From: Alphaproteobacteria bacterium
GTDB lineage: Bacteria > Pseudomonadota > Alphaproteobacteria > UBA9219 > RGZA01
Reading direction: 5' to 3'
DNA length: 64,000 nt
NCBI GenBank assembly: GCA_033762625.1
Contig: JANRLI010000016.1
Coordinates: forward strand, 77,660 to 141,659
Part shown: piece after piece, positions 5,961 to 30,600 of the stretch
Layout of the letters: each line of letters opens with the position of its first letter
Numbering within the stretch: the stretch's first letter is position 1
Made by a program: the position numbers and the translations under genes
The notes under the pieces: generated by a model
Seen by the model: only the letters and a program-made list of their open reading frames with translations
What the model was told of the DNA's origin: nothing
Databases searched by the model: none

Positions 5961-5980
5961 CACACGATATGACTTACTGC

Positions 5981-6859: not shown

Positions 6860-6873
6860 ATGATAAATGGCAT

Positions 6874-6899: not shown

Positions 6900-6963
6900 T
6901 ACACAGACATGCCACGCGGATTATCTTGCATGCGCATTCAACACTTAACATCTGGAGAATATA

Positions 6964-7221
6964 ATGTCTGGTCATTCAAAGAAACTTGCTGTCGCTGCAC
7001 TTGCCGGCCTTCTCACCATGGGCTTTTCAGTCGCCCCAGGCCAAGCGCACGCAACCACTGACAATGCGGCAGCGTCAGATACCCAAATCGAAAAGCATGC
7101 CTGCAAGGGACAAAATTCCTGCAAAGGCAATGGCGGCTGCAAAACCGAACGTAACGCCTGCAAGGGACAAAATGCCTGCAAGGGACTTGGCGGCTGCGCT
7201 ACCGACGGCAGCAAGAAATAA
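6964..7221 (+). CDS. BUF_6Cys-type (BufA2-like) bufferin precursor peptide, signal peptide plus two CKGQN.CKG.GGC repeats
   Basis: MSGHSKKLAVAALAGLLTMGFSVAPGQAHA then ACKGQNSCKGNGGCKTERNACKGQNACKGLGGCATDG (6 Cys); RBS ggagaa upstream. Confidence 0.7.
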   Translation: MSGHSKKLAVAALAGLLTMGFSVAPGQAHATTDNAAASDTQIEKHACKGQNSCKGNGGCKTERNACKGQNACKGLGGCATDGSKK

Positions 7222-7275
7222 TAATTCGATCTAGGTGACCCATTCATCCGCATAATACATGATGAAGGGCACAAA

Positions 7276-7304
7276 CCGGCGGTGGCAACGCCGCCGGTTT
7301 TTTT
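7276..7304 (+). terminator. Intra-operon hairpin/attenuator between precursor gene and maturase gene
   Basis: CCGGCGG-tggcaac-GCCGCCGG followed by ttttttt, then maturase ATG at 7318. Confidence 0.6.
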
Positions 7305-7317
7305 ATATGGTAGCGGC

Positions 7318-9440: not shown

Positions 9441-9600
9441 GTTTTATGACCCAAATGTACAAATCCTGAGGGCACTTCCCCTTTAATATTATTATCGTTT
9501 TACTTTCGAAACAGGCGTGCTTCTATATGCCCAGCAGGACACGCTCCGCTGTGTGCGGCCTGCATAGCGCTCAAGCCCTATTTTTCGAAAGGTGTATTTC

Positions 9601-10374: not shown

Positions 10375-10376
10375 GC

Positions 10377-13265: not shown

Positions 13266-16200
13266 TTACCAGCGATACTTCATACCGCCGAACACACCGT
13301 GGGTGGTTTCGTTGTTGCGGAAGCGGCCACTATATTTCCCGAATACCGAGAAATCGTTATTAAGTCTTAGCTGCATGCCTGCGCCGGCCTGCAATGCGCT
13401 TGGCTCGATATTGGTGCCATCCACCTTGAAGCGTGCGGTTGTGCCATCAAAGGTTTGTGTCGCATTCGCTTCGGGGCGGTATGCATCATACAGATAGGCT
13501 GCCGTCAGCTCGGGAATAAGCATCGAACCATCTGCCCTGTCGATATCAAAGCGCTTGGCCACATGCACTTGAAGGGTATTGCGCAACGCATGGGTGCTTT
13601 CGCTATCCACCGCAAGGTTGGCAGCATTCGCGCCCGTTTCAACAAACGCATCCTGATTATTGTAAAGGTAGGATACGGTATCAAAGATGCCGAGTTGAAC
13701 ATCGCCATCATCCGCCTTATAGCCGAGCGTACCCGATGCGCTGAAGGTCTGGCCTTCGGGTGAACCCTTGGCAGTTCCGGTGAATGTGCCAACGCGGATA
13801 TCGCGTTTGGTATCGCCCTTGTCAAAGCCGATACCTACCGCGCCGCCAACATAAATATTGCTATCCAGATTCTTCTGGCCATAAACGCCAAGCTGATAGC
13901 TGTTCAAGGATGCAGTATTGTTGTTCTGCTTCAGCTCCAATTCGTTATTGCCATATCCGAAGCCGATACGCAGCAGCGTGTCGCGTTCAGGCTTGAATTC
14001 CAGACCGACCATACCGCCAACCTGTGTTCCCTTAATGTCGCTGACATTGCTGTTTCCGGTCAGGGTTGCGAACTTGCCATACGCACAACCCCACGCCGCA
14101 ACATTCTGGCGCATGAAATTACGTTTGAGCTGAACCTGTTTGCGCTCGCCCTGATTAACCCGTTGGCTATCGCGCGGCAAGATAAGCGGCATTTGCTGAT
14201 AGCGCTGTTCCTTGCGTTCATAATATGGCGGTGGTTCTTGCTGCACAGGCGGCATGGATGCGTATTGTTGCGGCTGCACCTGTGGTACCACTTGTGGCAC
14301 AACTTGCGGCTGCATTTGTGGTTGCTGCATCACTTGCTGCGGCACGTATTGCTGCTGCATATATTGTTGTGGCTGCTGCGGCACGTATTGTGGCTGTACC
14401 TGTGGTGCCACTTGCGGCACCACTTGCGCCTGCTGTGTCATGACCTGTACCGGTTGCTGCGGCACAGGAATGTTGGTTTGCGAATACAAATTCTGACGCG
14501 GTGCGCCGCCATAAGGCGTGTTCATATTCGATTGCGCATAATGCTGGTAGGACGGCATCATCTGCGGGGTAGGCATTGGGCCAGGCATATAACCCGATGA
14601 TTGAACCACCATGTAATTTACAGCCGGCGGCGCAGCTTGCGCGACCATGCCTTGCGGCGCATAGATTTGTGAATATAATCCCAGCGGTCTATATCCGCTC
14701 TGAACCTGTGGCATGGCTTGCATTACGGGTTGCGGCGCAGGGATATAGCCATTTGGCATTCCATTATTGATGCCTGAACGTGCATGCATCAGTGCCTTGT
14801 AATTATCCGGCGCATAATCCATCGCAGTCAAGCCAATGGGCCGTGCCAGCATACCGCGGCGGGTTTCATAAGCAATCGGTGTATAGCGCGAATTGGGCAT
14901 AACCGTGCGCGTGGGTTGCTGCAATTGCGGCGCTACGTAATCGCTACCATCGGCGGTATCGTAATCGTAATTATACATCGTATCGCAATTACCGCTGCCG
15001 GGATTGGACAAGATTTCATCAAAGGTGAAATGGTTTTCACGCCATCCCTGCCCGATATCGGCATTCACCTGACCGGATAATGTTTCAAGCGCAGCCGCTT
15101 GACCCGTTGGCCCAACAGCACTTAATGCGTTTAACAAGGTATCCATTGAACTGCCATTCGCGGTTGTTTGCTGAATACCATCCAGCGCGCGGCCCGTTGC
15201 GGCCTGATTTTTGGTGGCGCCGGGCGCATTACCAAATAATTCAGCCTGCACAATTTTCATCTGGGTGGCGGTTGGGCTGTACAATGTTTGCAAGGCAAGC
15301 AGCGGGTTCGATGAAGCGGCAATCTCCGCATCATTTGACGCATTTACAATATTATCCGCGCCAATCGTCGCGCCGGATGATGTTGTGGTAAAGCGGCCCG
15401 TGCCGCTACCTGCTGGGCTTGAAATAATCGTATAGGTCGTGCCGCGCACATAGCGTGATGACGGCGTAAGCGGCTTGTAATGGATTTTTCCATCCAGCGA
15501 TGCAGGTGATCCCGTCACAATCAACTGGTCATGCACCGTATCGCTAAACTCCACTTCAAACGTACCGCCTGAATTTTGCGTAAATCCGGCAACGGTCAAT
15601 GTGCCGGGGCTATCGCCGGGGGCAACAGTACCGTTATTGACAATCTGGCCGGTGAACGTCCCAATACCCTTTAAGCCCGCGCCGGAATTTACAGTCACGG
15701 TGCTGCTGGCAACGCTGCCATCATTTTGCAAAGTGGATCCGCTGATAATGGTCGTTGTACCCGTATAGGTATTATTGCCGGTAACGCGCCATGTGCCGTT
15801 ACCTGTTACGATCAAGCCGCCGCCGGTTGGTGATCCATCGCCCACGCTGCCGGTAAAGGTGTTGGTACCGTTTTGTGTAATCGTACCGCCATCCAGCAAG
15901 ATGCTGCCCGACCCGCTTAAATTCGTAAGCGTCTGGCTGGTGGAGTTAACATCCAACACGCCATTAATCTCAACATCCGAACTGGTTGCAATCGCATCAT
16001 TCACAGTAAGGCTAAGGGTTGAACCCGAACCAATCGTCGTTGTGCCGGTATAGGTATTGACGCCCGATAACGTCCATGTGCCAGTACCGGTGGTTGCCAC
16101 ATTACCTGCGCCGGAAATCACGCCGCTAAAGGTGCCGGTACCGTTTTCGGTCAACGTATGGCCACTATCCGTCACAATACTTCCCGAACCTGAAAGGTTA

Positions 16201-18884
16201 CGAAGGGTTTGGTTGGTACCCGCCATGTTAATGGTGCCGTTATTGGTCACGGTGCTGCTGGTTGCAATCGTGTCATTGGTGGTCACAAGACCAAGCGTTG
16301 TGCCAGAGCTAACCGTTGTCGTTCCCGTATAGGTATTGGTGTTGGTCATGCCAACTGTGCCGCCCGAACCCGACACGGTCAGATTACCTGCACCCGAAAT
16401 CACACCGGAAAATAAATCGGTATTCGCGCCAACATTAATCGTATTGCTGCCGGTCAGCGCAATCGTCTTGCTGATGGTGGAATTACCCGTCAATTGCAAG
16501 GTGCTGCCACCCATCAAAATACCGCTGGTGCCATTGATATTGCTTTGACCCGCGATGCTTAAGGTTGTGCCGCTGCCGATTGATGTTGTGCCGGTATAAG
16601 TATTGGTGCCTGTCAGCGTCCATGTACCGGTACCGGTGGTTGCAACATTACCCGCACCGGAAATCACACCGCCCCATGATGCAGTTCCGATTTCGGTCAA
16701 GGTGTGACCTGTGTCGGTTACTACACTTCCAGAACCCGCCAGTGCATTAAAGGTCTGGTCGGTGCCTGTCATATTAATGGTGCCATTATTGGTAACGCCC
16801 GAGCTCGTCGCAATTTCATTATTGGTCGTGGAAAGCGTCAGCGTTGTACCCGACCCAACCGTTGTTGCGCCGGTGTAGGTTTGCGCGGTTGTAACAGTCC
16901 AGTTGCCGGAACCAGCAGTAGTTACATTGCCTGCGCCCGAAATTACACCGGCCCAAGTCGCCGTACCATTTTCGGTAAGCGTATTTCCTGTGCTTGTCAC
17001 CACGCTGCCTGACCCTGCAAGACTGCGCAAAGTCTGGTTGGTGCCGGTCATATTCACGGTGCCATTTACCGTTACGCCGGAACTATTGGTAATTTCATCA
17101 TTGGTCGTGGAAAGCGTCAGCGTCGTGCCAGAACCCACATTGGTTGTGCCTGTGTAAGTCTGTGCGGTTGTAACAGTCCAATTGCCCGTGCCGGTGGTTG
17201 CAACATTACCCGCACCGGAAATCACACCAGCCCAAGTCGCTGTGCCGTTTTCGGTCAAAGTATTGCCGGTAGTAACGGTCACACTACCGCTACCCGCAAG
17301 ATTACGAAGCGTCTGATTGGTGTTGTTGATGGCAAGCGTACCATTCACCGTCACAGCGCTGCTGGTTGCAATTTCATCTGCGGTGGTTGAAAGCGTAAGA
17401 GTCGAACCAGATCCGACATTGGTTGTACCCGTGTAAGTTTGCGCGGTTGTAACAGTCCAATTGCCCGTACCCGTGGTTGCAAGATTACCCGCACCGGAAA
17501 TCACGCCGCCCCAACTTGCCGTGCCGTTTTCGGTAAGCGTATTGCCTGTGCTTGTCACCACGCTGCCTGACCCTGCAAGACTGCGCAGGGTCTGATTGGT
17601 GCCAGTCATATTGACTGTACCATTTACTGTTACGCCGGAACTGGTCGCAATTTCATCATTCGTCGTTGAAAGCGTCAGCGTTGTGCCCGAACCCACATTG
17701 GTTGTGCCCGTGTAAGTTTGTGCAGCCGTCAGCGTAAGATTACCAGTGCCGCTGGTTGCAAGATTACCTGCGCCCGAAATCACGCCGCCAAAGGTTGATG
17801 TTCCAATATCGGTCAAAGTATTGCCGGTGGTAACGGTCACACTGCCGCTACCCGCCAGATTATTCAGTGTCTGGTTGGTGTTGTTAATAGCAAGCGTACC
17901 ATTCACGGTTACTGCACTGCTGGTTGCAATTTCATCTGCGGTGGTTGAAAGCGTAAGGGTTGAACCTGCGCCCACATTGGTTGTACCCGTGTAAGTTTGC
18001 GCGGTCGTAAGCGTCCAATTGCCCGTACCGGTGGTTGCAAGATTTCCCGCACCGGAAATCACACCGGCCCAAGTCGCCGTGCCGTTTTCGGTCAGTGTAT
18101 GGCCCGTATCGGTTACCACGCTTCCAGAACCCGCCAGCGCATTAAACGTCTGGTCGGTGCCCGTCATGTTCACTGTGCCGTTAACAGTCACAGCAGAACT
18201 GGTCGCAATGATATCATTGGTGGTTGAAAGCGTGAGTGTAGTACCCGACCCTACATTGGTTGTGCCAGTATAGGTCTGTGCAACGGTAATGGTCCAGTTA
18301 CCTGTGCCTGTTGTTGCAACATCACCCGCGCCAGAAATCACACCGCCCCAGCTCGATGTTCCGGAATGAGTCAAACTCCCGCCAGCGCTGGTCGTCACGG
18401 TGCCGCTGCCTGATAATGCCTGCAATGTCTGTGTGGTTGCTGCGATATTGATGCGGCCATTGTTTACAACACTGGCACTGCTGGCGATTACGTTATTCGC
18501 GCCAAACGCAAGCACTGCGCCGCTGGTAATGGTCGTGGTGCCGGTATAGGTATTCGCACCCGACAATGTCCACGCATTCACATTGGGGCTAAGGGATGTT
18601 GAGCCATCAATCGTCACATTTCCGGCACCGCTGATAACTTTGGTATAAGTGCTGCCTGCGCTAATCTGATCGGTCAGGTTGCCATCGACATTGGTGTTAT
18701 ACCCACTTGCAAAATCGACGATAACAATAAAGCCGCCCATACCATCGGGTACGGTGATCTGGCTGGTGTCATTAATATCGGTGAACGTATTATCAGCGCG
18801 CGCAGCGTTAAACGCAGAGGCTGATAAGGCAATAATGATAGCAAGCGATGCAGAAAATTTATTGAAACGATAATGGGCTGGCAT
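13266..18884 (-). CDS. Giant autotransporter (1872 aa): signal peptide, about 9 tandem ~95 aa passenger repeats, additional beta-helix, Pro/Gln-rich linker, C-terminal barrel
   Basis: Repeat unit GTGNWT.T.AQTYTGTTNVGSG.TLTLSTT.DEIATSSAVTVNGT....NQTL..LAGSGSV....NTLTENGTA.W.GVISGAGN; PQ-rich VPQVVPQVQPQQ region; barrel ending GVFGGMKYRW (terminal Trp). Confidence 0.8.
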   Translation of the reverse strand: MPAHYRFNKFSASLAIIIALSASAFNAARADNTFTDINDTSQITVPDGMGGFIVIVDFASGYNTNVDGNLTDQISAGSTYTKVISGAGNVTIDGSTSLSPNVNAWTLSGANTYTGTTTITSGAVLAFGANNVIASSASVVNNGRINIAATTQTLQALSGSGTVTTSAGGSLTHSGTSSWGGVISGAGDVATTGTGNWTITVAQTYTGTTNVGSGTTLTLSTTNDIIATSSAVTVNGTVNMTGTDQTFNALAGSGSVVTDTGHTLTENGTATWAGVISGAGNLATTGTGNWTLTTAQTYTGTTNVGAGSTLTLSTTADEIATSSAVTVNGTLAINNTNQTLNNLAGSGSVTVTTGNTLTDIGTSTFGGVISGAGNLATSGTGNLTLTAAQTYTGTTNVGSGTTLTLSTTNDEIATSSGVTVNGTVNMTGTNQTLRSLAGSGSVVTSTGNTLTENGTASWGGVISGAGNLATTGTGNWTVTTAQTYTGTTNVGSGSTLTLSTTADEIATSSAVTVNGTLAINNTNQTLRNLAGSGSVTVTTGNTLTENGTATWAGVISGAGNVATTGTGNWTVTTAQTYTGTTNVGSGTTLTLSTTNDEITNSSGVTVNGTVNMTGTNQTLRSLAGSGSVVTSTGNTLTENGTATWAGVISGAGNVTTAGSGNWTVTTAQTYTGATTVGSGTTLTLSTTNNEIATSSGVTNNGTINMTGTDQTFNALAGSGSVVTDTGHTLTEIGTASWGGVISGAGNVATTGTGTWTLTGTNTYTGTTSIGSGTTLSIAGQSNINGTSGILMGGSTLQLTGNSTISKTIALTGSNTINVGANTDLFSGVISGAGNLTVSGSGGTVGMTNTNTYTGTTTVSSGTTLGLVTTNDTIATSSTVTNNGTINMAGTNQTLRNLSGSGSIVTDSGHTLTENGTGTFSGVISGAGNVATTGTGTWTLSGVNTYTGTTTIGSGSTLSLTVNDAIATSSDVEINGVLDVNSTSQTLTNLSGSGSILLDGGTITQNGTNTFTGSVGDGSPTGGGLIVTGNGTWRVTGNNTYTGTTTIISGSTLQNDGSVASSTVTVNSGAGLKGIGTFTGQIVNNGTVAPGDSPGTLTVAGFTQNSGGTFEVEFSDTVHDQLIVTGSPASLDGKIHYKPLTPSSRYVRGTTYTIISSPAGSGTGRFTTTSSGATIGADNIVNASNDAEIAASSNPLLALQTLYSPTATQMKIVQAELFGNAPGATKNQAATGRALDGIQQTTANGSSMDTLLNALSAVGPTGQAAALETLSGQVNADIGQGWRENHFTFDEILSNPGSGNCDTMYNYDYDTADGSDYVAPQLQQPTRTVMPNSRYTPIAYETRRGMLARPIGLTAMDYAPDNYKALMHARSGINNGMPNGYIPAPQPVMQAMPQVQSGYRPLGLYSQIYAPQGMVAQAAPPAVNYMVVQSSGYMPGPMPTPQMMPSYQHYAQSNMNTPYGGAPRQNLYSQTNIPVPQQPVQVMTQQAQVVPQVAPQVQPQYVPQQPQQYMQQQYVPQQVMQQPQMQPQVVPQVVPQVQPQQYASMPPVQQEPPPYYERKEQRYQQMPLILPRDSQRVNQGERKQVQLKRNFMRQNVAAWGCAYGKFATLTGNSNVSDIKGTQVGGMVGLEFKPERDTLLRIGFGYGNNELELKQNNNTASLNSYQLGVYGQKNLDSNIYVGGAVGIGFDKGDTKRDIRVGTFTGTAKGSPEGQTFSASGTLGYKADDGDVQLGIFDTVSYLYNNQDAFVETGANAANLAVDSESTHALRNTLQVHVAKRFDIDRADGSMLIPELTAAYLYDAYRPEANATQTFDGTTARFKVDGTNIEPSALQAGAGMQLRLNNDFSVFGKYSGRFRNNETTHGVFGGMKYRW
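15880..18440. repeat. Tandem ~285 bp near-identical DNA repeats inside the giant autotransporter gene (approximate boundaries)
   Basis: Protein-level 95 aa periodicity; plus-strand ORF track shows recurring PAPEITP...VPFSV... antisense peptides every ~285 nt. Confidence 0.65.
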
Positions 18885-19134
18885 AAAGGGTCCTTTGCAT
18901 ACTGCACTAACCCTAGCCTTACCTTTTTTGTTACATCGTTAACGAAACCACATAAAAACCACGATTCGTCATTTTCTATGCTCATGATTCAAAAAAGGCA
19001 CAACTCCCATTTCATGAAAAAAATGTAATGATATTAAATGGTTAAAAGCACAGTCGGGGACACCCAACACTAGACCACATATTCAAGGCGCGCATAACGC
19101 ATCAAAAACCATGCGCAATTATTAATCCCATCCC

Positions 19135-21618
19135 CTAGCTTAATTGTTCCAGAAACACCGTCACTTCCTTATAGGACTGTGACAGATCTAGGAACAACGC
19201 CTGCTTGGTCGCACTATCGCTTTCGAACTGGTCTTCCGCTTGCTTGCATATATGCGACAGCGGCACCGCGCCGAAATTTGCTGCCGAACCTTTCAATTTA
19301 TGCGCGGCCTTTTTCCAGCGGATATTTTCGCCATCCATCATATTTCCTGCTAATGTCGCCAAGGATTCCTCGGCGCCTTTGGTGAACATATCGAATACCA
19401 TTTTGCGTTCGGCCGGGTCATCACCCACATATAAACTCAAATGCGTCAGGTCAACGGGCGGCAGACGCATTTCGGTTTCCTTTTCTTCATTCATACCTTC
19501 CTCCTGCTGTTCACCATCACGTGTTTTGTTGATTTTTGGTAAAGGCTGTACCGGCAAAGGCTCGCTACTGGTCAAATATTTCACCAATACTTCCATCAAG
19601 CGATTACTGTTAATCGGCTTGCTCACGTAATCATCCATACCTGCATCGATGCATTTTTCGCGGTCGCCAATCATGGCGTTGGCAGTCATGGCGATAACAG
19701 GCATGCGTTTGCCGGTAATAATCTCGCGCTGGCGAATGGCACGGCTTACTTCATACCCGTCCATTTCCGGCATCTGGCAATCGGTGATGACGATGTCATA
19801 CCGGCCTTTTTCGATCATCTGCAACGCGGTCTTGCCGTCTTCCGCCGTATCCACCGTGCCAAATCCGAATTTGGTCAACAATTTTTTGGCAAAGAACAAA
19901 TTCACGGGATGATCATCGACGACAATGATGCGGCGCTTGCCAAAATCCATATCCGTCATATCGCTAGATTGCGCCGCGCGGTTTTCCTGCATCAAGCGTT
20001 CGGTCTGTTCGGCATTGGCAACTTGCAATGGCAAGGTAAACCAGAAACTTGAGCCTTTCCCCAGCAAGCTTTCAACGCCAATCGTGCCGCCCATCGCTTC
20101 AACAAGCAATTTGCACACGGTCAGGCCAAGGCCGGTGCCGCCAAACCGGCGCGTGGTGGATTCATCGGCCTGTGTGAATTTCTGGAAAATCTTGCCCAGA
20201 TTTTTTTCCGAAATGCCGATGCCGGTATCATCCACACGGAACAGGAATTCGATAACACCATTTGGCATACGGCGCGATGAAACATCCAGTTTCACATAAC
20301 CCACTTCCGTGAACTTCAACGCATTCCCGACCAGATTGGTTACCACTTGGCGAATGCGCGCGGCATCACCAATGACGCAATCAGGCGTAGTCGCGTTATA
20401 AAAATGATTAAGAGCGATCCCTTTGTTCTTTGCCAAGGGGTCTAACAAGCGCACCGCTTCATGAATGGTGGCATTCAAATTGAACGGGATATCTTCCAGC
20501 GTGAGCTGCCCCGCTTCGATCTTCGATAAATCCAAAATATCATTCAAAAGGGAGAGTAAACTTTCGCCGGAATTGAAAATGGTTTGCACCAATTCGCGCT
20601 GTTCGGGCGTTAAGTGCATATCTTTCAATAACCCCGCCATACCCAGCACACCATTCATCGGCGTACGCAATTCATGGCTCATATTGGCAAGGAAATCGCT
20701 TTTTGCGCGGCTGGCAGCTTCGGCCTTCAAGGATTCTTCACGCAAGATTTCTTCGGTCTTTTTCAGTTTGGTGATGTCATAGCTATACACATTGGCAGTT
20801 TGTTCGCCGGCCAGAAAATTCGCGGTGACTACTTGCTGATAGGTAATTTTTCCGACCACCACTTCGCGGGTAACGGGCTTGCGTTCATCATAGGCCTTGC
20901 GTGCATCGCGGATGATTCCTTCCAGCAACGGATGGGCCATACCTTTTTTCAAAATATCCGAATATTTATTATAGGCAGCGGGGTTCACGAACAACAACGC
21001 TTCCTTATCGATATCGATTTTCATCAACGGGTCAGGATTGTGTAGCGGAAATTGCGCAATTTCTTCCGCCTTCTTTTGCGCTTTTTCGGCCGCGGTTTTG
21101 GCTTGCACCAACTCGGCTTCAAAATTCTTGCGCTCGGTGATATCGCGTTCAATTGCAGCAAAATGCGTAATGCGGCCATGCACATTGCGGATCGGCACAA
21201 TATTGATGTTGAGCCAGTATTCTGCCCCATTTTTGTGATAATTCAGTAGCTCGCCCTCAAAGGGCTGGCCGGCTTCCAATGCGCTGCGTATTTTGCGCAA
21301 GGTATCCTTATCCGTTTTTTCTCCTTGCAGGATGCGCGGGGTTTTGCCCACCACTTCTTCGCGGCTATACCCGCTGATACGGATAAACGCATCATTCACA
21401 TAGACAATGCTGGGACCATCGGCATCAGCGAAATTCGCCTTGGTGATGATCACGCCGTCTTTGGAATTACGTACCACTTCTTCAAACAGCACCATGCCTT
21501 CCACTTCTTGGCGCAGGATTCTTGTTTCTTCCAGACTTTGCTTCAAATCCAAAGCGAGCGCTTCGGATTTCATATGAGCCATTTTAAGGGCGATTTCGGA
21601 TGCAGATTCGTCACTCAT
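19135..21618 (-). CDS. Hybrid sensor histidine kinase: coiled-coil, PAS domains, HisKA, HATPase_c, receiver, C-terminal HPt
   Basis: H-box ANMSHELRTPMNGVLGMAGLL; G-box region GGTGLGLTVCKLLVEAMGG; REC IIVVDDHPVNLFFAKKLL...ITDCQMPEMDGYEV; HPt HKLKGSAANFG. Confidence 0.85.
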   Translation of the reverse strand: MSDESASEIALKMAHMKSEALALDLKQSLEETRILRQEVEGMVLFEEVVRNSKDGVIITKANFADADGPSIVYVNDAFIRISGYSREEVVGKTPRILQGEKTDKDTLRKIRSALEAGQPFEGELLNYHKNGAEYWLNINIVPIRNVHGRITHFAAIERDITERKNFEAELVQAKTAAEKAQKKAEEIAQFPLHNPDPLMKIDIDKEALLFVNPAAYNKYSDILKKGMAHPLLEGIIRDARKAYDERKPVTREVVVGKITYQQVVTANFLAGEQTANVYSYDITKLKKTEEILREESLKAEAASRAKSDFLANMSHELRTPMNGVLGMAGLLKDMHLTPEQRELVQTIFNSGESLLSLLNDILDLSKIEAGQLTLEDIPFNLNATIHEAVRLLDPLAKNKGIALNHFYNATTPDCVIGDAARIRQVVTNLVGNALKFTEVGYVKLDVSSRRMPNGVIEFLFRVDDTGIGISEKNLGKIFQKFTQADESTTRRFGGTGLGLTVCKLLVEAMGGTIGVESLLGKGSSFWFTLPLQVANAEQTERLMQENRAAQSSDMTDMDFGKRRIIVVDDHPVNLFFAKKLLTKFGFGTVDTAEDGKTALQMIEKGRYDIVITDCQMPEMDGYEVSRAIRQREIITGKRMPVIAMTANAMIGDREKCIDAGMDDYVSKPINSNRLMEVLVKYLTSSEPLPVQPLPKINKTRDGEQQEEGMNEEKETEMRLPPVDLTHLSLYVGDDPAERKMVFDMFTKGAEESLATLAGNMMDGENIRWKKAAHKLKGSAANFGAVPLSHICKQAEDQFESDSATKQALFLDLSQSYKEVTVFLEQLS

Positions 21619-21631
21619 ACATCCTCCATCA

Positions 21632-22006
21632 TTATCGGTTCAATACATCGGGGCGCGTGGTCTCGACGATACTCAAAGCCTCGGTGATTAATCCTGGCGG
21701 CACTCCCAGATCTTCCATGGATGTTTTCAAATGCAGCGCTACTTGGTCAAAATGCACATCGGATAATCCGCGTTCAACCAGCCGTTCATGGGCTCTGCGC
21801 ATGGTTTCACCGCTGTAGTGTGTAGGCCCGCCAAATGCCATGCTGACAAAAGCAAACTGGCTGGTACGCAACCGTTCCACATTAATGTCTTTGAAAAACG
21901 GAATCAGTAACGGGTCTGAAAGAATTTTGTCATACAGCAGTGCAACTGTGGCCTGCACCGATTGCGCCCCGCCGATCCGTTCATAAAGTGACATGACATG
22001 GTTCAT
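21632..22006 (-). CDS. Truncated (2/2) hemoglobin, group I-like, co-transcribed immediately upstream of the hybrid kinase
   Basis: 124 aa; SLYERIGG...AV..FY N-terminal trHb signature, HERL...HF region; 13 nt gap to kinase gene. Confidence 0.65.
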   Translation of the reverse strand: MNHVMSLYERIGGAQSVQATVALLYDKILSDPLLIPFFKDINVERLRTSQFAFVSMAFGGPTHYSGETMRRAHERLVERGLSDVHFDQVALHLKTSMEDLGVPPGLITEALSIVETTRPDVLNR

Positions 22007-22018
22007 GGTTTTTCCTTT

Positions 22019-22900
22019 TTAATTGGCGTGCGCGATATCCGATTTACACATATCGATATACCGGTCAAACGCGCCGCGGTTGAACGGTTTACCAATAAAC
22101 CCAACCGCCCCCGCCGCATAGGCCTTCACGCGATTATCCACATAACTATTGCTGCTGAACATGATGACCCGGCAATGCGGATCATACGCTTTTATGTAAT
22201 TCAGCAGCATAAACCCGTCACATCCCGGCATTTCAATATCCACAAATACGATATCGGGCGTGAGCAGCAAATGCTTTTCGATCGCTTCCGGAACCGATGC
22301 CGCGGTTGCCATGGGATATTCGTTTTTAAATGCCTTGGAAACAATATGCCGCGTCGTTGCATCATCATCCACCACCATCACGCAGGGCTTTGCGTTGCGC
22401 AGACGCTGTTTATGGGTTGCCATCCATGCTTTCAATAGATCACTGATGTGCGGCACCATTGCTTTGAGTGAATCGAATTCAATCGTATCGACCGTGTTCA
22501 TGCGGTCATGCGGGGTTGCATACAGGCGTGACAGCTCATCAATCGTATCCATATCGTCCAGCAGCACAAAATGGCGGAAGCTAAAAAACGGCCGCATGCC
22601 ATTCAATTCGTCAATGTCATGGCGCAGATGTTTTAAATGGTCCTTGGTCAGATGCTCGGCGATGACCACCACCATATTCGTGCCCAATTGCAAGATCACG
22701 CCGTCGCATCCGCCCAATGTCGCACGGCTCACATGGCACAGATGACTGTGGATCATGGGGTCAAGCGCGTCTTGCGGTTCCGTTGCCGCAGATATCACCA
22801 CCGCATGCCAGCCTTCCCACGATGCAGGATCGGCAGCAAGGCTGATGGAAAAATTGCCGATAAAACGGCTAACGGCATCGGGTTCGTTCAAAATCTGCAT
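22019..22900 (-). CDS. Atypical response regulator: ~150 aa N-terminal domain of unknown function plus C-terminal receiver domain
   Basis: REC at C-terminus: VMVVDDDATTRHIV...FVDIEMPGCDGFMLL...FSSNSY...GAVGFIGKPF; N-domain has no recognisable motif; paralogous to next gene. Confidence 0.7.
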   Translation of the reverse strand: MQILNEPDAVSRFIGNFSISLAADPASWEGWHAVVISAATEPQDALDPMIHSHLCHVSRATLGGCDGVILQLGTNMVVVIAEHLTKDHLKHLRHDIDELNGMRPFFSFRHFVLLDDMDTIDELSRLYATPHDRMNTVDTIEFDSLKAMVPHISDLLKAWMATHKQRLRNAKPCVMVVDDDATTRHIVSKAFKNEYPMATAASVPEAIEKHLLLTPDIVFVDIEMPGCDGFMLLNYIKAYDPHCRVIMFSSNSYVDNRVKAYAAGAVGFIGKPFNRGAFDRYIDMCKSDIAHAN

Positions 22901-22928
22901 GACGATTTCCTTTTAAAAAACAGCTAAA

Positions 22929-23792
22929 TTAAATCGTGTGATAGGTGGGCGCCTGCGCGATATATTGCAGCAGTTTCGATTTGGAGAACGGCTTGCCGAT
23001 AAATCCTTTCGCACCGATCTGCATCGCACGCATGATGTCGCTGCGTGTGCTATTCGCGCTCAGCATCACTACATAAGCAGTTGGGTCGATGACAAGAATT
23101 TTTTGTAGCACCTCGTGCCCGCTAATATCGGGAAGTCCGATATCCAAAAACACAACGTCTGGCGCATATTTTTCATACGCCTCGCATGCCTTGGTCCCGT
23201 CTTCTGCTACAAATGTCATGCAATCGGGCTCGACAGCTTTTTTGGCAATGAACACCGATAACGGATCATCTTCGACAATCAATACGCAATTGCGCGAACG
23301 CTCAAAGCGACGGGTCAAGATATCCTTGCTCACTTTGGTGTTGGCATGGTCGTGCTCGGCTGCCATGCGGATATTGCCGGTGGTTTCACGGCGGGCTTCG
23401 GCGACATTCAATTTGTCACATGCGGTTTCGAATAATTCCTGCCAGCTAAGGCCAAGATCATATAAAACACTCAGCGGTAACATCATCTTCAGACGCAATT
23501 CTTCGCTGACATGGAAATTGATTTCATGGCTGATGGCTTCGAAATCCTTGCGGGTAATGGCTTTACCCACCACGATGATGTCATCATCATTCATAAAGAA
23601 TATGGTGCCTTCATATTCGGACAATTCATTGGTGATGATTCCAAAGGCAATTTTTTGAATGTCGGTGACGCTGGTAAATTCTTTGAGAAGGGAGAAATTG
23701 AAACTCATCGCACGCCAGGATGCACGGGTGGCTTTGATCGAAGTGAGCGTCTCTTTCAGTCTTAATTCGCTCTCTGCTCTCACGGTCATCAT
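22929..23792 (-). CDS. Atypical response regulator paralog (unknown N-terminal domain + C-terminal receiver)
   Basis: REC: VLIVEDDPLSVFIAKKAV...FLDIGLPDISGHEVL...LSANS...GAKGFIGKPF; N-domain alignable to paralog (GTIFFMNDDDIIVVGKAITRKDFEAISHEI vs GVILQLGTNMVVVIAEHLTKDHLKHLRHDI). Confidence 0.7.
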   Translation of the reverse strand: MMTVRAESELRLKETLTSIKATRASWRAMSFNFSLLKEFTSVTDIQKIAFGIITNELSEYEGTIFFMNDDDIIVVGKAITRKDFEAISHEINFHVSEELRLKMMLPLSVLYDLGLSWQELFETACDKLNVAEARRETTGNIRMAAEHDHANTKVSKDILTRRFERSRNCVLIVEDDPLSVFIAKKAVEPDCMTFVAEDGTKACEAYEKYAPDVVFLDIGLPDISGHEVLQKILVIDPTAYVVMLSANSTRSDIMRAMQIGAKGFIGKPFSKSKLLQYIAQAPTYHTI

Positions 23793-24001
23793 GGCATTCT
23801 CTCCTGTTTCAGCCTTGTGATAGGCAATACATTGCAGCCACCGTGCCAGAAGATTTGAAATGCTATTTCATTGAATTTTCATAAGATTTTATTTGAATAT
23901 CAAAATAGCCTCATAATATTTCTCGATTTGGGACATTCATTTTTGGAATTTTTCTCATTTTGGTAAGGAAGATTTAATCCCCGATACCTATTATACGAAG
24001 C

Positions 24002-25393
24002 ATGAAACCTCGCATTCTGGTCGTCGAAGACAGCGAAACGCAACGCTACCTGCTGGCAAAATTACTCGGCTTTCGGCTCGGCTATGATGTGGTGGAGGCG
24101 GAAAACGGCCTGATTGCGTTGCAAAAATTAGCCGACGATAAAACGGGCAGCATCTCTGCCGTATTGCTCGATCTGGAAATGCCGGAAATGGATGGCCGCG
24201 CAGCCTTGCCCAAAATACACGCGCTGCGTCCTGAACTTCCGATTATTATTTTAACAGCCACCGAAGACATCAACGATGTGGTAGATGTGATGAAACTCGG
24301 CGCAACCGATTTTCTGATTAAACCGCCGGATGCCGACCTTTTGAAAAGCGCGCTGGATAAGGCGATTAAAATCCAAACCCTGCGGCATGAAGTGGAACGC
24401 CTCACCCGCGAACAAAAGGGCAAGCGCGCCTTTACCGATATCATCGGTCATGCGGGTGACTTGAAAACCGCGATTAAACTGGCGCGTAAAGCCGCAGCTT
24501 CCGATATTTCCGTACTCATCAGCGGGGAAAGCGGTGTGGGCAAGGAAGTCTTTGCGCGGGCCATCCACACCGAAAGCGCGCGGGCGCAAAAGCCGTTTGT
24601 TGCGGTCAATTGCGGCGCACTGCCACGCGAACTGGTAGAAAGCATTCTATTCGGCCATAAAAAAGGTGCGTTTACAGGCGCTACCAGTGACGAGATCGGT
24701 AAATTCCGCGAAGCCGAAGGCGGCACATTGTTCCTCGATGAAATCGGCGAATTACCGCTGGACGCGCAGGTAAAATTACTGCGCACATTGCAACAACGCG
24801 AAGTCGAACGTGTGGGCGGCGGCAAACCCATTCCGGTCAATATCCGCGTCATCGCCGCTAGCAACCGTTCGATTACACAAGAAGTGAAACGCGGTCATTT
24901 CCGCGAGGATTTATATTATCGTTTGAATGCGTTTCCCATCCATATTCCGGCGCTGCGCGAACGTAGGCATGATATGAATGAACTATGTGAATTCTTCCTG
25001 CGCCATTATGCAATGGTTGAACAACGCGACATTGATGGCTTTGATGCTTCGGCCAAACAATGGCTGCTGCATCATTCATGGCCAGGCAATGTGCGTGAAC
25101 TGGAAAATAAAATTTACCGTGCCGTATTGCTGTGTGAAGGGCGCACCATTCATCTTGAACATATCGTCATGGATGAAATGCAATCCGCCACAGTGCAAGG
25201 CTTATCCGCTACGCCCGCACCGGGCGCTATTCAACTGGTTGATGTCAATGGCGCAATCAAATCCATGGCCGCGATCGAACATGAAGCCATCCGCGCCGTG
25301 CTGGATATGCACGATCAAAACATCCGCGCTACCGCCGATGCGTTGCATATCGGCGCATCCACCATCTATCGTAAATTGGAAAATAAGTCGTAA
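24002..25393 (+). CDS. Sigma-54-dependent transcriptional activator (NtrC family): receiver, AAA+ sigma-54 interaction domain, Fis-type HTH
   Basis: [17 protein letters not shown]...DLEMPEMDG; Walker A GESGVGKE; GAFTGA motif; ESELFGH-like ESILFGH; C-terminal [18 protein letters not shown]. Confidence 0.85.
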
Positions 25394-25410: not shown

Positions 25411-25472
25411 AAAACCCGCCCGAACGGTTGTGCCCACATTTTTTTAATTGGGCACAGCGTAGTCGGTCTAAA
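25411..25472. repeat. Palindromic intergenic repeat, copy 1 (upstream of tpsB)
   Basis: aaaacccgcccgaacggttgtgcccacatttttttaattgggcacagcgtagtcggtctaaa with internal hairpin GTGCCCA-loop-TGGGCAC; near-identical to the 34754-34874 copy. Confidence 0.55.
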
Positions 25473-25751
25473 TAAAACTGTGGACAATATAGGGTGTCAA
25501 CCTGCGACCTGTTGATAAAGCGAACGGCCACGCACGACCTATAACGCATTTCTTCATCGCATCACAAAACCAAGCTGTTGTTTTCATTGAGTGCAAACGG
25601 GGTTCGTCGCACCAACCATGCTTTTATACACCGCGCATGTGCGTCAATCGCAGCAAGCACGCGCGGCCGTCAGATTATTTGAGTTCAATGGCTTTTTTGC
25701 TAGGCTCGCCTGCTGCCATTTCATGCCTGCACCTTATTTTATTACCGTTGA

Positions 25752-27437
25752 ATGTTCTTCAGGAATTCTGCCTTTTTGCTGCTATGTGCACTTTGCCTGT
25801 GCATGCCGCTTGGCGCGGTGGCACAGGTAGCGATACCCAATTCCGCCGATATCAGCCGCATCAAACCCGAAGAACATATTCCGTCACTATCCCACACGAA
25901 TGACGGTAAAATATCCATCCCGTCCGGCAAGGGCGCAGCGCCAGTCCCGGATGAAGCAAAACGCGTGAAGCTCACTCTGAAATCCTTGAAGATTATCGGT
26001 GCAACCGTTTATGCTCCAGCCGAACTTGATGCGCTGTATGCAACCAACATCGGTAAGGACATCACCTTGGATGCGGTTTATAAAACCGCATCCGCCATTA
26101 CCGAAAAATACCGTAATGACGGCTATTTCCTGAGCAGGGCATTCGTTCCAGAACAGGAAATCGAAGATGGCAACGTCACCATTCGCGTCGTCGAAGGTTA
26201 TGTCGGCGCAGTGGACGGCACCAGCACATTTGCGGATTCAGCAATCGTCAATGATGCGATTGAACGCCTAACGCATAAACGCCCGTTGACCTCTGATGAT
26301 ATCGAGCGATTTTTATTATTGCTGGATGATCTGCCGGGGTATGAATTTGGCGGTACATTATCACCGCTTGAAGATGCGCCCGATGGCGCGGTCAAGCTGA
26401 CGCTCACCGTCAAAGAGACCCAAGGCACCGGTTCCATCAATTTCGATAATCACTCATCGCGCTTTCTGGGGCCGAATGAAATTTCGGCATCCTATTCCAA
26501 AAGTTTTATCCCGTTTCAGCAAACAACCATCTCTGCATTGTCGGATGTTGACCGCACCAAATTGCGTTATGGCACGATTGATCATTCCATCGCGCTTAGC
26601 ACGGATATGAAGCTGAATATTGCCGGCGGCGTTACGCAAGCCATGCCCGGTTACTCGCTGGAAAGCTCGGAAATCGACAGTATTTCAATCTTTGCCAGCA
26701 TCGCGCTCAACTATCAATTGCTGCGCACTCGTCAGCAAAATCTCGGCCTAAAGGCATGCGTTGATGGACGCGATGTCAAAAGCGATATCCTTGGCGCGCC
26801 GCTGACACGAGATTATATCCGCGCATTCCGCGCCAGCGCAAATTACGATCTCGCCGATGGCTGGCATGGCTTCAATAACGCAACCATCACACTCGCCCAC
26901 GGTGTGGACTGGCTGGGCTCCAGCCATCCCAATGATCTCAACCTATCGCGCATCGGCGCATTGCCGGATTTCACCAAGGGCGAATTATCACTCTCGCGCC
27001 TGCAAAGCATTACGCAAGACTGGTCGGTTCTTATCGCTGGCGAAGGTCAATGGGCATCGGGCGTTTTATATTCATCTGAACAATTCGGATATGGCGGACA
27101 AAATTTTGGCCGTGCGTATGATTCATCCGACATCACGGGCGATCACGGCATCAAAGGTTCTGTTGAAATGCGTTACGGCGGATGGACAGGAGAACGCATG
27201 GTCAATCTGCAGCCTTATGTGTTTTACGATATCGGAAAAGTGTGGAACGAGGCGGTCGGCCAACCGTCGAATATTTCTGCATCGACAGCGGGCATTGGGC
27301 TTCGCTTCAATACGCAATGGAAACAATCGGGGAACCTGGGGGTTGCATTCCCGCTCGACCGTGATATTACCACCCCCATTTACGGGTCGGGCGAGCGCGG
27401 CCCGCGCTTCATCCTGCAAATAAGCCAACAATTCTAA
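25752..27437 (+). CDS. Two-partner secretion outer membrane transporter TpsB (ShlB/FhaC/HecB family)
   Basis: Signal peptide; POTRA-like region with YFLSRAFVPEQEIEDGNVTIRVVEGYVG; 561 aa; C-terminal barrel ending FILQISQQF (terminal Phe). Confidence 0.8.
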   Translation: MFFRNSAFLLLCALCLCMPLGAVAQVAIPNSADISRIKPEEHIPSLSHTNDGKISIPSGKGAAPVPDEAKRVKLTLKSLKIIGATVYAPAELDALYATNIGKDITLDAVYKTASAITEKYRNDGYFLSRAFVPEQEIEDGNVTIRVVEGYVGAVDGTSTFADSAIVNDAIERLTHKRPLTSDDIERFLLLLDDLPGYEFGGTLSPLEDAPDGAVKLTLTVKETQGTGSINFDNHSSRFLGPNEISASYSKSFIPFQQTTISALSDVDRTKLRYGTIDHSIALSTDMKLNIAGGVTQAMPGYSLESSEIDSISIFASIALNYQLLRTRQQNLGLKACVDGRDVKSDILGAPLTRDYIRAFRASANYDLADGWHGFNNATITLAHGVDWLGSSHPNDLNLSRIGALPDFTKGELSLSRLQSITQDWSVLIAGEGQWASGVLYSSEQFGYGGQNFGRAYDSSDITGDHGIKGSVEMRYGGWTGERMVNLQPYVFYDIGKVWNEAVGQPSNISASTAGIGLRFNTQWKQSGNLGVAFPLDRDITTPIYGSGERGPRFILQISQQF

Positions 27438-27604: not shown

Positions 27605-30600
27605 ATGACCGATTTTCGTTTGAGATCACTGCCAAAAACTGAATTCGCCCGTATGTTGCGCACGGGCAAAAAGGCATTGTGCTGTCTCGTGTCGTTTGCA
27701 TTCTTTGCCATGCAGACAATGCCATTGCTCGCCAATCCGGTTAATGGAACGGTAAGTGCGGGCAGCGCCAATATCAGCTCTGCTGGAAATACCCTCACAG
27801 TCACCCAAACAACCGATAAAGCCGTCATCGACTGGCGCGGCTTTGATATCGCGAAGGGTGAAACCACGCGCTTTGTTCAGCCATCCTCTTCGTCCATGAC
27901 ATTGAACCGCGTGAGCAGTAACGCGCCGAGCTTCATCGACGGCAATCTGACTGCGAATGGTAATCTGGTTGTTGTAAATCCGAATGGCGTGTGGTTCGGA
28001 CCCAATGCACGCGTCGATGTCAACGGCCTCATCGCCAGTACGGCGAATATCAGCAATAACGCGTTCATGAACAATACCGGCATCCTAAATTTCGATGAAG
28101 CCGGAAACCCTGATGCAGCGATTATAAATGATGGCCTTATCACCGCCAAAGATGCAGGACTTGTCGGGCTTGTTGCACCAAATGTCATCAATCGTGGCAT
28201 CATTTATGCTCGCCTTGGCCGTGTAGCACTCGCATCCGGCGATACGGCGACGGTGGATTTATACGGCGATGATCTGATCAAGGTTGCGGTTTCGGACAAA
28301 GTCAAATCACAACTCGTCAGCAATAGCGGTGTGATTGCTGCCCCTGGCGGAACCATCGCGCTGACCGCCGCCGCCGGAAAAGACATCGTCAACAGTTTGA
28401 TAACCGTGCATGGCGAACTGGCTGCGCCCAGCATCCGCGAACATAATGGCAAGATTATCATCGCAGCCCAAGGCAGCAACAAGACAACCAAACAAGGCCA
28501 TAGCACTGTCCTCGTCTCTGGCATTCTCGACGCATCGGGCCGCAATGCAAGTGAACATGGCGGCAGCATTCAGGTAACGGGTGATAATATCGGCTTATTG
28601 GCTGGCACCCGCATCGATGCATCGGGCAGCGATGGATTATCCGGAACAACACTTGGCAAAGCAATTTCTTCCATGCGCATCGGTGCAGCCGGCGGGGATA
28701 TCCGCATCGGCGGTGATTATCTGGGCGGCGGTCATACACCCACCGCGCTGAACCTTTACGTCGATAAGGATGTGTTGGTGTTGAATGATGCCCTGAATAG
28801 CGGCGATGCAGGCCGAACCATCTTCTGGTCGGATGGCACGACACAATTCTACGGCAATGTCTATGCGCGTGCACTGGGCGGCAAAGGCATTCATGCCACC
28901 ACATGGAATGCGATTGCGGGCGGCAATGCCGGTGATGGCGGCTTCATCGAAACATCCGGCCACGGACATCTGGACGCTGGCGGCTATGTTGATCTCACCA
29001 GCAGCAACGGTTCACGGGGCACCTATTTCCTTGACCCGACCAACATCACCATCTACGGGAACTTCGCACCGAACTACGCAACGGTCATCACAGGTTCAAC
29101 CGGCGCGCTTTCCGCCAGCTTGAAACTATGGGTGGATTCAAGCGATACCGCCAATGTCAATCTCACCTACAGCGCACTGACCACAGCAGGCGCGAATAGC
29201 TGTGCAAGTTCATGCCTAACCGCGAACGGCACATCCGGCGCAACAACCATCACCACAAGCGCTAACATCGCTTCTACACTTCAGGTCGGCCAACGCCTTC
29301 GCCTTGGCGCTGCCGGCAGCGTAACAGCCGCCTCCACGCTTGGCACAGACACCTACACCATCAGCTCCATTTCCGGCACCACTATCACATTCTCCAGCGC
29401 ACTCACCGCGACATACACAAACGCAGTGGTCTATGCCGGCTACGTATCACAAATGACTGATAAAAGCGGTCTGGGTAATAACGCGACGCAGGCAACGGCC
29501 GCGAACATGCCGCTATGGATAAGCAATGGGTTTAATTCAATCGGGACCACGAATTACTCTGGCAGCTCCTACCTCAATCTCCCGAACCTCATGTCAGGCG
29601 CAACAGCGGGCAGCGGTTTTTTCAGCGCGATCAATGCGGCCGATCCGCCGGGTACCGGAAGCCAGACAGGTATGCCTTTTGGTAATTGGGGCACCGGCAT
29701 TCAATCCCACTATGTCTGGACGGACGGCGTTGTATACGATTCATTCGGCTCCAATCTCAGAAAGACCGCTGCAAATCCTGTTCCGGCATTGACGACAGCC
29801 AATGTGTATGGGGTCATCTCTGCGGCGAATGACTGGCGCGACTATATCAACGGACAAGCTCTTTTCTCGACCACGACGAACACCGTCGCATGGGGCACAA
29901 CGCCGACGATTGGTAATAATGTTGGCTCGTATTTCTTTACAGGAAAACTTGGTGATGTTTTTGCCTATAACAAAGCTGTATCCGCGAACGAACAGACGCT
30001 GTTGAACCAGTACATATCCGGAAAATGGAATGTTGCACTTCTTCCTCCGGGTAGTGGCGCAACTGAAGTTGCGCAGGCAACCGCAAGCGTGCAGAAAGGC
30101 GATGCGGTTGATGGGTACAGCGTCTTTACAACCCGTTATTTACAACGCTTATCGCAATCCGCAAATATCAGCTTGCAATCGTCGAATAACATCACCCTTG
30201 ATTTTCAGGGCGATAATATGAATTTCACGACGGCAGGTCGCACCCTCACCCTGACAGCAGGAAATCAGATTACAACAGCATCTACCGGAACCATCACGAC
30301 CAATGCGGGGGCGATCACCTTGAATGCCACCAACGGCATTTTAATCAATAATGCCTTCACGATTAATTCTGCAAATGGCGCGGTCAATATCAATAACGCT
30401 GTTACGCTTGCCGCGAATTTGAGTGTGACATCCGGTTCAGGCACACTAACCTTCGCCAGCACCATCGATGGCGCAGGTGGTTTGACCACAAGCTCTACCA
30501 ATGGTGCAACAATCTTCAACGGGGCTGTTGGTGGCACAACGCCGATTACCAGCTATACCGGAACAGGCCGCGACCTTACCATCAATCAAAACATCACCAG

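Follow-up and report, generated by a model that had tools for sequence, protein, structure and literature searches.

The stretch of DNA analyzed here (64 kb of contig JANRLI010000016.1, in the following called the window) stems from a metagenome-assembled genome (MAG) deposited at NCBI, and it carries a five-gene cassette that encodes a predicted LuxQ/LuxU/LuxO-like phosphorelay with an accessory heme protein. Two response regulators (RR2 and RR1), a truncated hemoglobin and a hybrid histidine kinase are encoded in this order on one strand, and a sigma-54 activator of the enhancer-binding protein (EBP) type is encoded on the other (Table 1; proteins MDX1923085-89). In the NCBI annotation RR1, RR2 and the hybrid kinase are alike named only 'response regulator'. 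Each component class (hybrid kinase, NtrC-type EBP, group I truncated hemoglobin, receiver) is known already, and so is the circuit logic, in which a heme accessory protein, a hybrid kinase and a histidine phosphotransfer (HPt) module are combined with a sigma-54 activator. The new elements are a truncated hemoglobin as the heme protein of such a circuit and a paired, undescribed family of receiver-associated domains within the cassette. Moreover, judging from its promoter region, the cassette appears to be self-activating. Taken together, we read the cassette as a multi-step phosphorelay with a globin-modulated kinase, self-activation by the EBP and output through the N-terminal domains (N-domains) of RR1 and RR2, and we hold this reading with slightly better than even confidence.

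Conservation and promoter of the cassette

A preliminary description of this DNA had given coordinates and the gene order RR2-RR1-globin-kinase, and both were matched exactly by our list of open reading frames (ORFs). The small intergenic gaps that it mentioned measure 28 bp (RR2-RR1), 12 bp (RR1-globin) and 13 bp (globin-kinase). At each of these three junctions an AAGGA or GGAGGA Shine-Dalgarno sequence lies ahead of the next start codon (RR1, globin, kinase). The gene junctions and the single conserved promoter argue for co-transcription of the four genes, which had been described as one operon. A terminator-like hairpin past the kinase stop codon probably marks the operon end, but it is weak evidence because the count of terminator-like sites is at chance level. 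Consensus scans for sigma-70 promoters and terminators between positions 18800 and 25800 gave counts equal to the shuffled expectation and were uninformative.

The order of a divergent EBP gene and RR2-RR1-globin-kinase was found in the window and also in the related loci L001, L004, L011 and L012, where RR2 is 61-83% identical to the window protein. Three further loci carry variants. L008 has kept the EBP, two response regulators, the globin and the kinase. L009 encodes the EBP and two response regulators, its kinase is longer and includes a GAF domain, and the globin is missing. In L010 there is one response regulator, a separate HPt and a hybrid kinase, and both EBP and globin are missing. 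The divergent position of the EBP gene is kept in L001, L004, L008, L009, L011 and L012, the tandem of an RR2-type and then an RR1-type gene is seen also in L008 and L009, and the globin gene lies directly upstream of the kinase gene with a spacer of 12-15 bp in six loci (window, L001, L004, L008, L011, L012). The flanking genes are unrelated among the window (autotransporter and two-partner secretion pair), L008, L009 and L011 (DUF2946 gene and helicase gene). On the EBP side L001, L004 and L012 have their neighbors in common. Among the genes that surround the module in L001 and L004 are dcd, infC, lexA and one for a peptidase M15, and in L012 the dcd and M15 genes recur on the EBP side. From this distribution, with the gene order kept in at least seven metagenomic loci, the five-gene set can be regarded as a self-contained, portable module of uncultured Alphaproteobacteria. 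Its predicted invariant core consists of one or more regulators with N-domain and receiver and of the hybrid kinase/HPt, usually together with a divergent EBP. Since L009 and L010 lack the globin, we do not count it among the core genes but class it as a frequent accessory.

When we searched species-representative genome contigs with RR2, we obtained only receiver-level matches, which were located in two Acidobacteriota MAGs. This suggests that the lineage of the window is not among the species representatives. In L008 the RR2-type gene is present as two ORFs (7077-8017; 92 + 221 amino acids) and the same is true for the kinase (9450-11383; 90 + 560 amino acids); frameshifted pseudogenes or errors in the assembly could account for these split ORFs. 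The kinase of this locus is followed by a separate PAS_3 protein of 145 amino acids, and flagellar genes are nearby.

The EBP has NtrC-class architecture, with a REC domain, a Sigma54_activat AAA+ domain and HTH_8 (Pfam E = 4.8e-71, 8.3e-25 and 3.7e-05 over the three). The receiver has D57, and a Walker A motif (residues 175-182, GESGVGKE) and GAFTGA (222-227) are present. None of the NCBIfam equivalog cut-offs was reached, neither for AtoC (398/714, the best one) nor for LuxO (367/800) or NtrC (371/559), and the same applied to FlbD and ZraR.

The top sigma-54-like site of the whole window, TGGCACGgtggCTGCA, matches 11 of the 12 specified positions and faces RR2. Its pattern TGGCAYG-N5-TGC occurs in exactly one copy in each of the seven module-bearing loci, just upstream of the first response regulator gene, and no copy was found in L010, which has no EBP, or in two unrelated loci. 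The site of L008 agrees perfectly with the sigma-54 consensus (TGGCACGcctaTTGCA). GG and GC are invariant in the locus alignments, and in a five-locus footprint the GGCA and TGC elements are invariant. This footprint also revealed a conserved block, TTACCAAAATGAGAAAAATTCCAAAAATGAATGTC, which lies upstream of both the -24 element, at a distance of about 85-120 bp, and the EBP start codon, at about 35-70 bp. Its CCAAAATGA(G/C)A core is present even in the distant locus L009, and we infer that the block is a candidate upstream activator site (UAS) for the EBP. Between this candidate UAS and the promoter there is a further conserved block, rich in AT, which is possibly a DNA-bending (IHF-type) site. 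Together, TGGCACGgtggCTGCA and the upstream blocks have the layout of a classic EBP-dependent promoter, and by implication the kinase, the globin and both response regulators would be under positive autoregulation.

The EBP had been described as divergent from the operon, which is correct, and also as a candidate regulator of exoprotein expression from the adjoining two-partner secretion (TPS) locus tpsB/tpsA. On one and the same strand tpsB does follow the end of the EBP gene after 358 bp, and upstream of tpsB there is one GG-N10-GC site (AGGCTCGcctgCTGCC, 25702-25717, 35 bp before the ATG). However, no more than 8 of the 12 positions agree in this site, and equally good sites number 109 per 128 kb, so that about 0.3 would be expected in the stretch upstream of tpsB by chance. 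No GG-N10-GC sigma-54 site was found upstream of tpsA. Furthermore, the TPS genes are missing next to the module in L001, L004, L008, L009, L011 and L012, and because the adjacency is missing even at 82% identity (L011) a regulatory link is unsupported. For the same reason the TPS locus looks lineage-specific. Finally, the conserved promoter and its upstream block point into the response regulator operon and not toward tpsB. Control of the TPS locus by the EBP is therefore very improbable, and from its conserved gene context we assign the EBP to the module. About 35 bp past the EBP stop codon we observed an inverted repeat with a T-rich loop (GTGCCCA-N12-TGGGCAC, 25428-25456), which may serve as an atypical terminator between the EBP gene and tpsB.

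Hybrid kinase and truncated hemoglobin

The kinase comprises the Pfam domains PAS (residues 64-162), HisKA (305-370), HATPase_c (417-532), REC (564-677) and Hpt (742-803), and the phosphorelay residues are all present: H315 (in SHELRTP), D613 and H773 of the HPt (in HKLKGS). It had been described as having its own PAS domains and an HPt. Pfam recovered the HPt and a single PAS domain, so that the plural is inaccurate; a second PAS-like region at about residues 190-290 was suggested only by our inspection by eye. No transmembrane segment was evident in the translation. The kinase did not reach the NCBIfam cut-offs for TorS (424/676), BarA (424/890), ArcB (352/838), LuxQ (348/1200) or NahK (130/1500), and by its domain content it can be classified as a cytoplasmic unorthodox hybrid kinase outside any named orthogroup. 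ArcB, BarA, TorS and EvgS have the same HisKA-HATPase-REC-HPt architecture, and the NCBIfam models of TorS, BarA and ArcB cover most of residues ~280-825. In contrast to these four kinases, the enzyme of the cassette has no membrane or periplasmic sensor and carries a LOV-type PAS at its N-terminus.

This first PAS domain (PAS1) matched the FAD-PAS of MmoS with E = 1.4e-31 and bacterial LOV kinases with E = 7e-25 to 1e-21. It has the RxLQG flavin-binding motif in common with MmoS and with LOV histidine kinases (Brucella LOV-HK, Pseudomonas/Chloroflexus short LOV), and the kinase stretch GKTPRILQG aligns to the LOV stretch GRNCRFLQG. Unlike in the LOV kinases, the adduct-forming Cys of the GXNCRFLQ motif is not present in PAS1. 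Pro94 occupies the position of the photoactive Cys (residues 92-94 correspond to positions 21337-21345 of the window), and a Glu is aligned to the conserved I-beta Gln. Because of these two exchanges a canonical blue-light photocycle is not expected, and PAS1 is more readily interpreted as a flavin-based redox sensor than as a photocycling LOV domain.

The globin was recognized by the Pfam model Bac_globin (PF01152) with E = 2e-18 and 67.2 bits (cut-off 21) over residues 6-122 of 124, and its NCBI name is 'group 1 truncated hemoglobin'. The best PDB matches were those to the Chlamydomonas group I truncated hemoglobin (trHbN) LI637 (1UVX/1DLY, E = 6e-28); cyanobacterial GlbN (~1e-23) and M. tuberculosis HbN (1e-18) also aligned end to end. 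Its heme pocket includes TyrB10 (Y25), PheCD1 (F38), LeuE7 (L46), GlnE11 (Q50) and the proximal HisF8 (H73), and Gly-Gly hinges are found at G12-G13 and G59-G60. Y25, F38, Q50, H73 and both hinges are invariant among the six module globins and two solved trHbNs. The preliminary description had placed a heme-binding 2/2 globin directly upstream of the kinase, and the alignment, in which the proximal His is present, bears this out: the protein is a predicted heme-competent, canonical trHbN. It resembles the known group I proteins (LI637, GlbN, HbN) end to end and has kept all heme-pocket residues. What sets it apart from them is its gene context between response regulator and hybrid kinase genes in a sigma-54-driven operon.

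M. tuberculosis HbN acts as a nitric oxide (NO)-dioxygenase-type detoxifier, and truncated hemoglobins are usually treated as NO/O2-handling enzymes. The nearest known circuits employ other heme proteins. The H-NOX/HqsK-LuxU-LuxO system of Vibrio harveyi and the NosP/VpsS-LuxU-LuxO system of Vibrio cholerae are NO-responsive phosphorelays, in which the genes of a stand-alone heme protein and of a cytosolic hybrid kinase occur together and phosphate passes via an HPt to the sigma-54 activator LuxO; HqsK and VpsS are without sensory domains (PMC6769237). As in these systems, the heme protein of the module is co-cistronic with a hybrid kinase (window, L001, L004, L008, L011, L012), and the strongest NCBIfam similarities of the module kinase and EBP are to models that include LuxQ and LuxO, with the equivalog cut-offs missed. 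There are five differences. In place of H-NOX or NosP the cassette encodes a group I truncated hemoglobin, its HPt is part of the kinase polypeptide, a flavin-type PAS is present in the kinase, the operon adds two regulators with an undescribed domain, and the conserved target of the activator is predicted to be the operon itself, whereas LuxO targets small RNA genes. In the literature searched we found nothing relevant on trHb-kinase operons or on this response regulator architecture beyond the H-NOX/NosP analogues.

By analogy with H-NOX/HqsK and NosP/VpsS, the globin might act in trans as a ligand- or redox-dependent modulator of kinase autophosphorylation. An O2/NO-responsive relay, as suggested before, is plausible. 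Alternatively, the globin may be an output of the system, a co-induced NO-dioxygenase-type detoxifier, and the kinase would then sense redox or NO alone via its flavin PAS. This alternative is a serious possibility, though not one we would bet on. It is in line with the LOV/MmoS-type PAS of the kinase, with the location of the globin gene within a sigma-54-driven operon, by which the globin would be induced by the system, with its dispensability in L009 and L010, and with its fully canonical trHbN nature, with no additional domain and no unusual pocket. On the other hand, the position of the globin gene just upstream of the kinase gene (12-15 bp) is fixed in six loci, and in L009, where the globin is lost, the kinase has a GAF domain that is absent from the window kinase. 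This exchange looks like a sensor substitution, and we took it as support for a globin that modulates the kinase. Both observations are suggestive, not decisive.

Response regulators and their N-terminal domain

Both response regulators contain one Pfam Response_reg domain, which is located at the C-terminus (RR2, residues 170-278; RR1, residues 174-277). This arrangement is the inverse of the REC-output order, as had been noted. The receivers are intact, with an acidic pair (RR2 D175, D176; RR1 D178-180), a phospho-acceptor Asp (D217; D221), a Ser/Thr (S245; S249) and a Lys (K267; K271). The N-domain of RR2 is characterized by S25-W26, an F65..D68-D-D70-I-I-V hairpin and D112-L113, and the linker that follows the N-domain varies among the RR2-type proteins but is conserved among those of the RR1 type. 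When the N-domain sub-alignments of the two types were compared with hhalign, a probability of 98.7% (E = 3.6e-16, 121 columns) was obtained, which identifies the two N-domains as homologous without a contribution of the receiver.

No Pfam or NCBIfam model matched residues 1-165 of RR1 and RR2 or the N-domains of 35 family members. An N-domain hidden Markov model retrieved 37 clusters at E <= 1e-3 from 1.84 billion cluster representatives. Most of these proteins have 270-306 amino acids and the domain begins at residues 1-14; four exceptions are short and probably fragments, and one 407-amino-acid protein with a multi-stretch match is probably spurious. A REC domain was detected in 34 of the 35 members scanned and no other Pfam domain was recognized. 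The members that were looked up are all metagenomic and the sole name found was the generic 'CheY'. PDB sequence searches with two N-domain profiles gave no natural relative, only a chance match to a mannosyltransferase (E = 1.1) and matches to de novo designed ferredoxin-like proteins (E = 0.0055). Thus, the view that the two paralogs share an N-terminal domain of no described family held up, at a length of about 125 amino acids, and we consider the domain as undescribed at the sequence level.

The same reversed order, with an effector or interaction domain before the receiver, is known from CheV (CheW-REC), PatA/PixG (PATAN-REC) and PhyR (sigma-like-REC). An N-domain of one of these types was rejected, as no CheW, PATAN/DUF4388 or sigma-70 r2/r4 Pfam match was seen among the 35 members at E <= 1. 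Compared with the CheV, PatA and PhyR domains, the N-domain of RR1 and RR2 is smaller and has another predicted topology.

AlphaFold2 modeled the isolated RR2 N-domain with a pTM of 0.72 and a pLDDT of about 80-90 for residues 1-100. The topology of the model is beta(2-6)-alpha-beta(26-31)-alpha-beta(62-66)-beta(72-77)-alpha-alpha-beta(107-112)-alpha, which suggests a palm-like, ferredoxin-like beta-alpha-beta-beta-alpha-beta core with an N-terminal extension. A degenerate receiver was considered and rejected: there is only one REC match per protein, the topology includes an antiparallel hairpin (62-77), and no REC domain was among the 50 Foldseek matches listed. Most of these 50 PDB matches are GGDEF or cyclase domains (GGDEF domains of FimX, DosC, PA2567, WspR, LapD and DgcR; GTP cyclohydrolase III and class III adenylyl cyclases), and generic ferredoxin-like folds (acylphosphatase, SbtB, de novo ferredoxins) share the same listing.

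FimX and LapD, two degenerate GGDEF proteins, serve as models for a further possibility, namely that the N-domain is a highly degenerate GGDEF domain that binds a second messenger of the c-di-GMP/GTP type and that RR1 and RR2 are phosphorylation-gated nucleotide receptors. The stretches that first hinted at GGDEF are WRAMSFNFSLLKE..., FFMNDDDIIVV and ...SWQELFETACDKLN. GGDEF and class III cyclase palms, including FimX (3hva, E = 0.016, prob 0.97) and LapD, are the best structural neighbors of the model, and they appear to share with it the beta-alpha-beta-beta-alpha-beta core and a conserved acidic beta-hairpin. The family consensus at this hairpin is F-x-x-D-x-D-I-x-V, and an F-x-x-D-G-D-I-[LIV]-V hairpin sits where the R-x-GGDEF hairpin is. 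Against such a receptor function, no sequence signal was found: Pfam GGDEF (PF00990) matched none of the 35 members at E <= 1, and hhalign gave a probability of 0.2% against a GGDEF alignment that comprised only three sequences (PleD, 3ICL and one consensus entered by hand). The family has no GG[DE]EF motif, no RxxD I-site and no conserved Asp on the first strand (26-31). At about 125 amino acids the N-domain is some 35 residues shorter than a GGDEF domain (about 160), it precedes the receiver, whereas in PleD and WspR the order is REC and then GGDEF, and generic ferredoxin-like folds were retrieved as well. Membership in the GGDEF family was thus rejected, with Foldseek weakly supporting a palm-like fold; GGDEF ancestry is a lead, not a result, and we regard a nucleotide receptor of this kind as unlikely.

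RR1 and RR2 might also be mainly phosphate sinks or competitors that tune how much phosphate reaches the EBP from the HPt, and the N-domain would then be merely structural or dimerizing, with no downstream target. Three receivers would compete for a single HPt, no obvious target of RR1 or RR2 is encoded in the cassette, and both regulators are predicted to be induced from the EBP-dependent promoter, which would add negative feedback to the positive loop. A sink, however, would need the receiver alone. The N-domain (about 125 amino acids with S-W, D-x-D-I hairpin and D-L motifs) has been kept in two paralogous lineages and about 37 clusters, and this retention argues for a selected function of its own. 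For these reasons a pure sink function seems doubtful to us.

Proposed mechanism, neighboring genes and significance

In the mechanism that we propose, the kinase would integrate a redox, O2 or NO signal via its Cys-less LOV-type flavin PAS, with the globin as modulator. The phosphoryl group would pass from His to Asp to the HPt and from the HPt to the EBP, RR1 and RR2. The phosphorylated EBP would bind the conserved block between the divergent EBP and RR2 genes and switch on the sigma-54 promoter, and this would result in positive feedback on the kinase, the globin, RR1 and RR2. In the co-inherited pair RR1/RR2, the N-domain, which is without catalytic motifs, would constitute a phosphorylation-controlled output. 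Phosphorylation of the receiver may free or reorient the N-domain so that it engages a partner. The N-domain would most likely work by protein-protein contact, possibly in an RR1-RR2 heterodimer, and its target would lie outside the cassette. A precedent is PhyR, in which phosphorylation frees the N-terminal domain to bind its partner. PhyR partner switching has been mentioned in the literature (PMC5964349), and by analogy a PhyR-like freeing of the N-domain is a plausible working model for RR1 and RR2.

Several points weigh against this mechanism. HqsK and VpsS are without a sensor, but a PAS sensor is built into the kinase of the cassette, so that an accessory globin sensor is not required, and the globin is absent from L009 and L010. 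Phosphotransfer from the HPt to three receivers is assumed from co-localization. As to the fold, the C-terminal third of the N-domain was modeled with low confidence, the Foldseek matches were weak (best E = 0.016, TM 0.35-0.53, none at E <= 0.001 among the matches listed) and the comparison with GGDEF by hhalign gave the 0.2% quoted above. Moreover, all members of the module are derived from metagenomes. A more specific version combines two proposals: the N-domain would be a new phosphorylation-gated, palm-derived output, with RR1 and RR2 as obligate heterodimer that has a nucleotide or protein partner, and at the same time the trHbN would be a trans-acting O2/NO sensor of the kinase. That both hold together is improbable.

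Table 1. Coordinates of the cassette genes and of the associated predicted sites (positions in the window)
Feature	Position	Strand	Size or composition	Source
Hybrid histidine kinase gene	19135-21618	-	827 amino acids	six-frame ORF list
Globin gene	21632-22006	-	124 amino acids	six-frame ORF list
RR1 gene	22019-22900	-	293 amino acids; N-domain residues 1-~135 (nt 22496-22900, 'SWxGW' subtype), helical linker, C-terminal receiver	six-frame ORF list
RR2 gene	22929-23792	-	287 amino acids; N-domain residues 1-~134 (nt 23391-23792), linker, C-terminal receiver	six-frame ORF list
Sigma-54 activator (EBP) gene	24002-25393	+	463 amino acids	six-frame ORF list
Terminator-like hairpin	19053-19068	-	67 bp past the kinase stop codon	consensus scan
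Predicted sigma-54 (-24/-12) promoter TGGCACGgtggCTGCA	23833-23848	-	-12 GC 42 bp upstream of the RR2 ATG
Conserved AT-rich block between candidate UAS and promoter	23854-23907			footprint alignment
Candidate UAS, conserved block TTACCAAAATGAGAAAAATTCCAAAAATGAATGTC	23932-23969			five-locus phylogenetic footprint

On the kinase side of the module two autotransporters are encoded. The larger one (13266-18884, minus strand, 1872 amino acids) contains many near-identical passenger repeats of about 65 residues (GTGNWT(V/L)TTAQTYTGTTNVGSG(T/S)TLTLSTT), which are followed by a long Q/P-rich linker, and the smaller one (10377-12758, minus strand) has PATR and Autotransporter Pfam domains. On the EBP side, TpsB (25752-27437, plus strand) has POTRA_2 and ShlB domains, and the TpsA exoprotein (27605-34735, plus strand, 2376 amino acids) includes an internal low-complexity stretch of poly-Gly/Ala/Ser. 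The region 2544-9000 looks like an oxidative-stress cluster. It carries MsrA-MsrB-MsrA (2544-4207, minus strand), adjoined by genes for an extracytoplasmic function (ECF) sigma factor (4702-5271) and an NrsF-type anti-sigma factor (5268-5927), and a 572-amino-acid protein (7282-9000) that joins MbnB/TglH/ChrH and DUF2063 domains. Farther away, an ORF of 556 amino acids (58138-59808, plus strand) is apparently a fusion of a class I/II aminotransferase (HisC-like) and imidazoleglycerol-phosphate dehydratase (IGPD); it lies in a histidine-biosynthesis region with hisD (56549-57919), a hisH-like gene (61113-61766) and hisA/F (62743-63474). Two ORFs on the minus strand are of atypical length: an ORF of 1139 amino acids (37733-41152) matches phosphoenolpyruvate carboxylase only over residues 441-679, and a PRPP-synthetase-like protein of 518 amino acids (50396-51952) has an N-terminal extension of about 190 residues without Pfam match.

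For annotation, these data imply that the EBP should not be listed as a regulator of the neighboring secretion locus. A sensory, kinase-controlling role has not been ascribed to truncated hemoglobins in the literature searched, and the trHbN encoded between response regulator and hybrid kinase genes in a conserved operon is a testable sensory candidate, parallel to H-NOX and NosP. Since the system comprises five genes with one promoter and a candidate UAS, and since all proteins are predicted to be soluble, heterologous reconstitution appears feasible despite the uncultured host. The N-domain would extend the catalog of response regulator output domains by a representative of the rare type with a C-terminal receiver, and its occurrence as a co-inherited paralog pair suggests heteromeric signaling.

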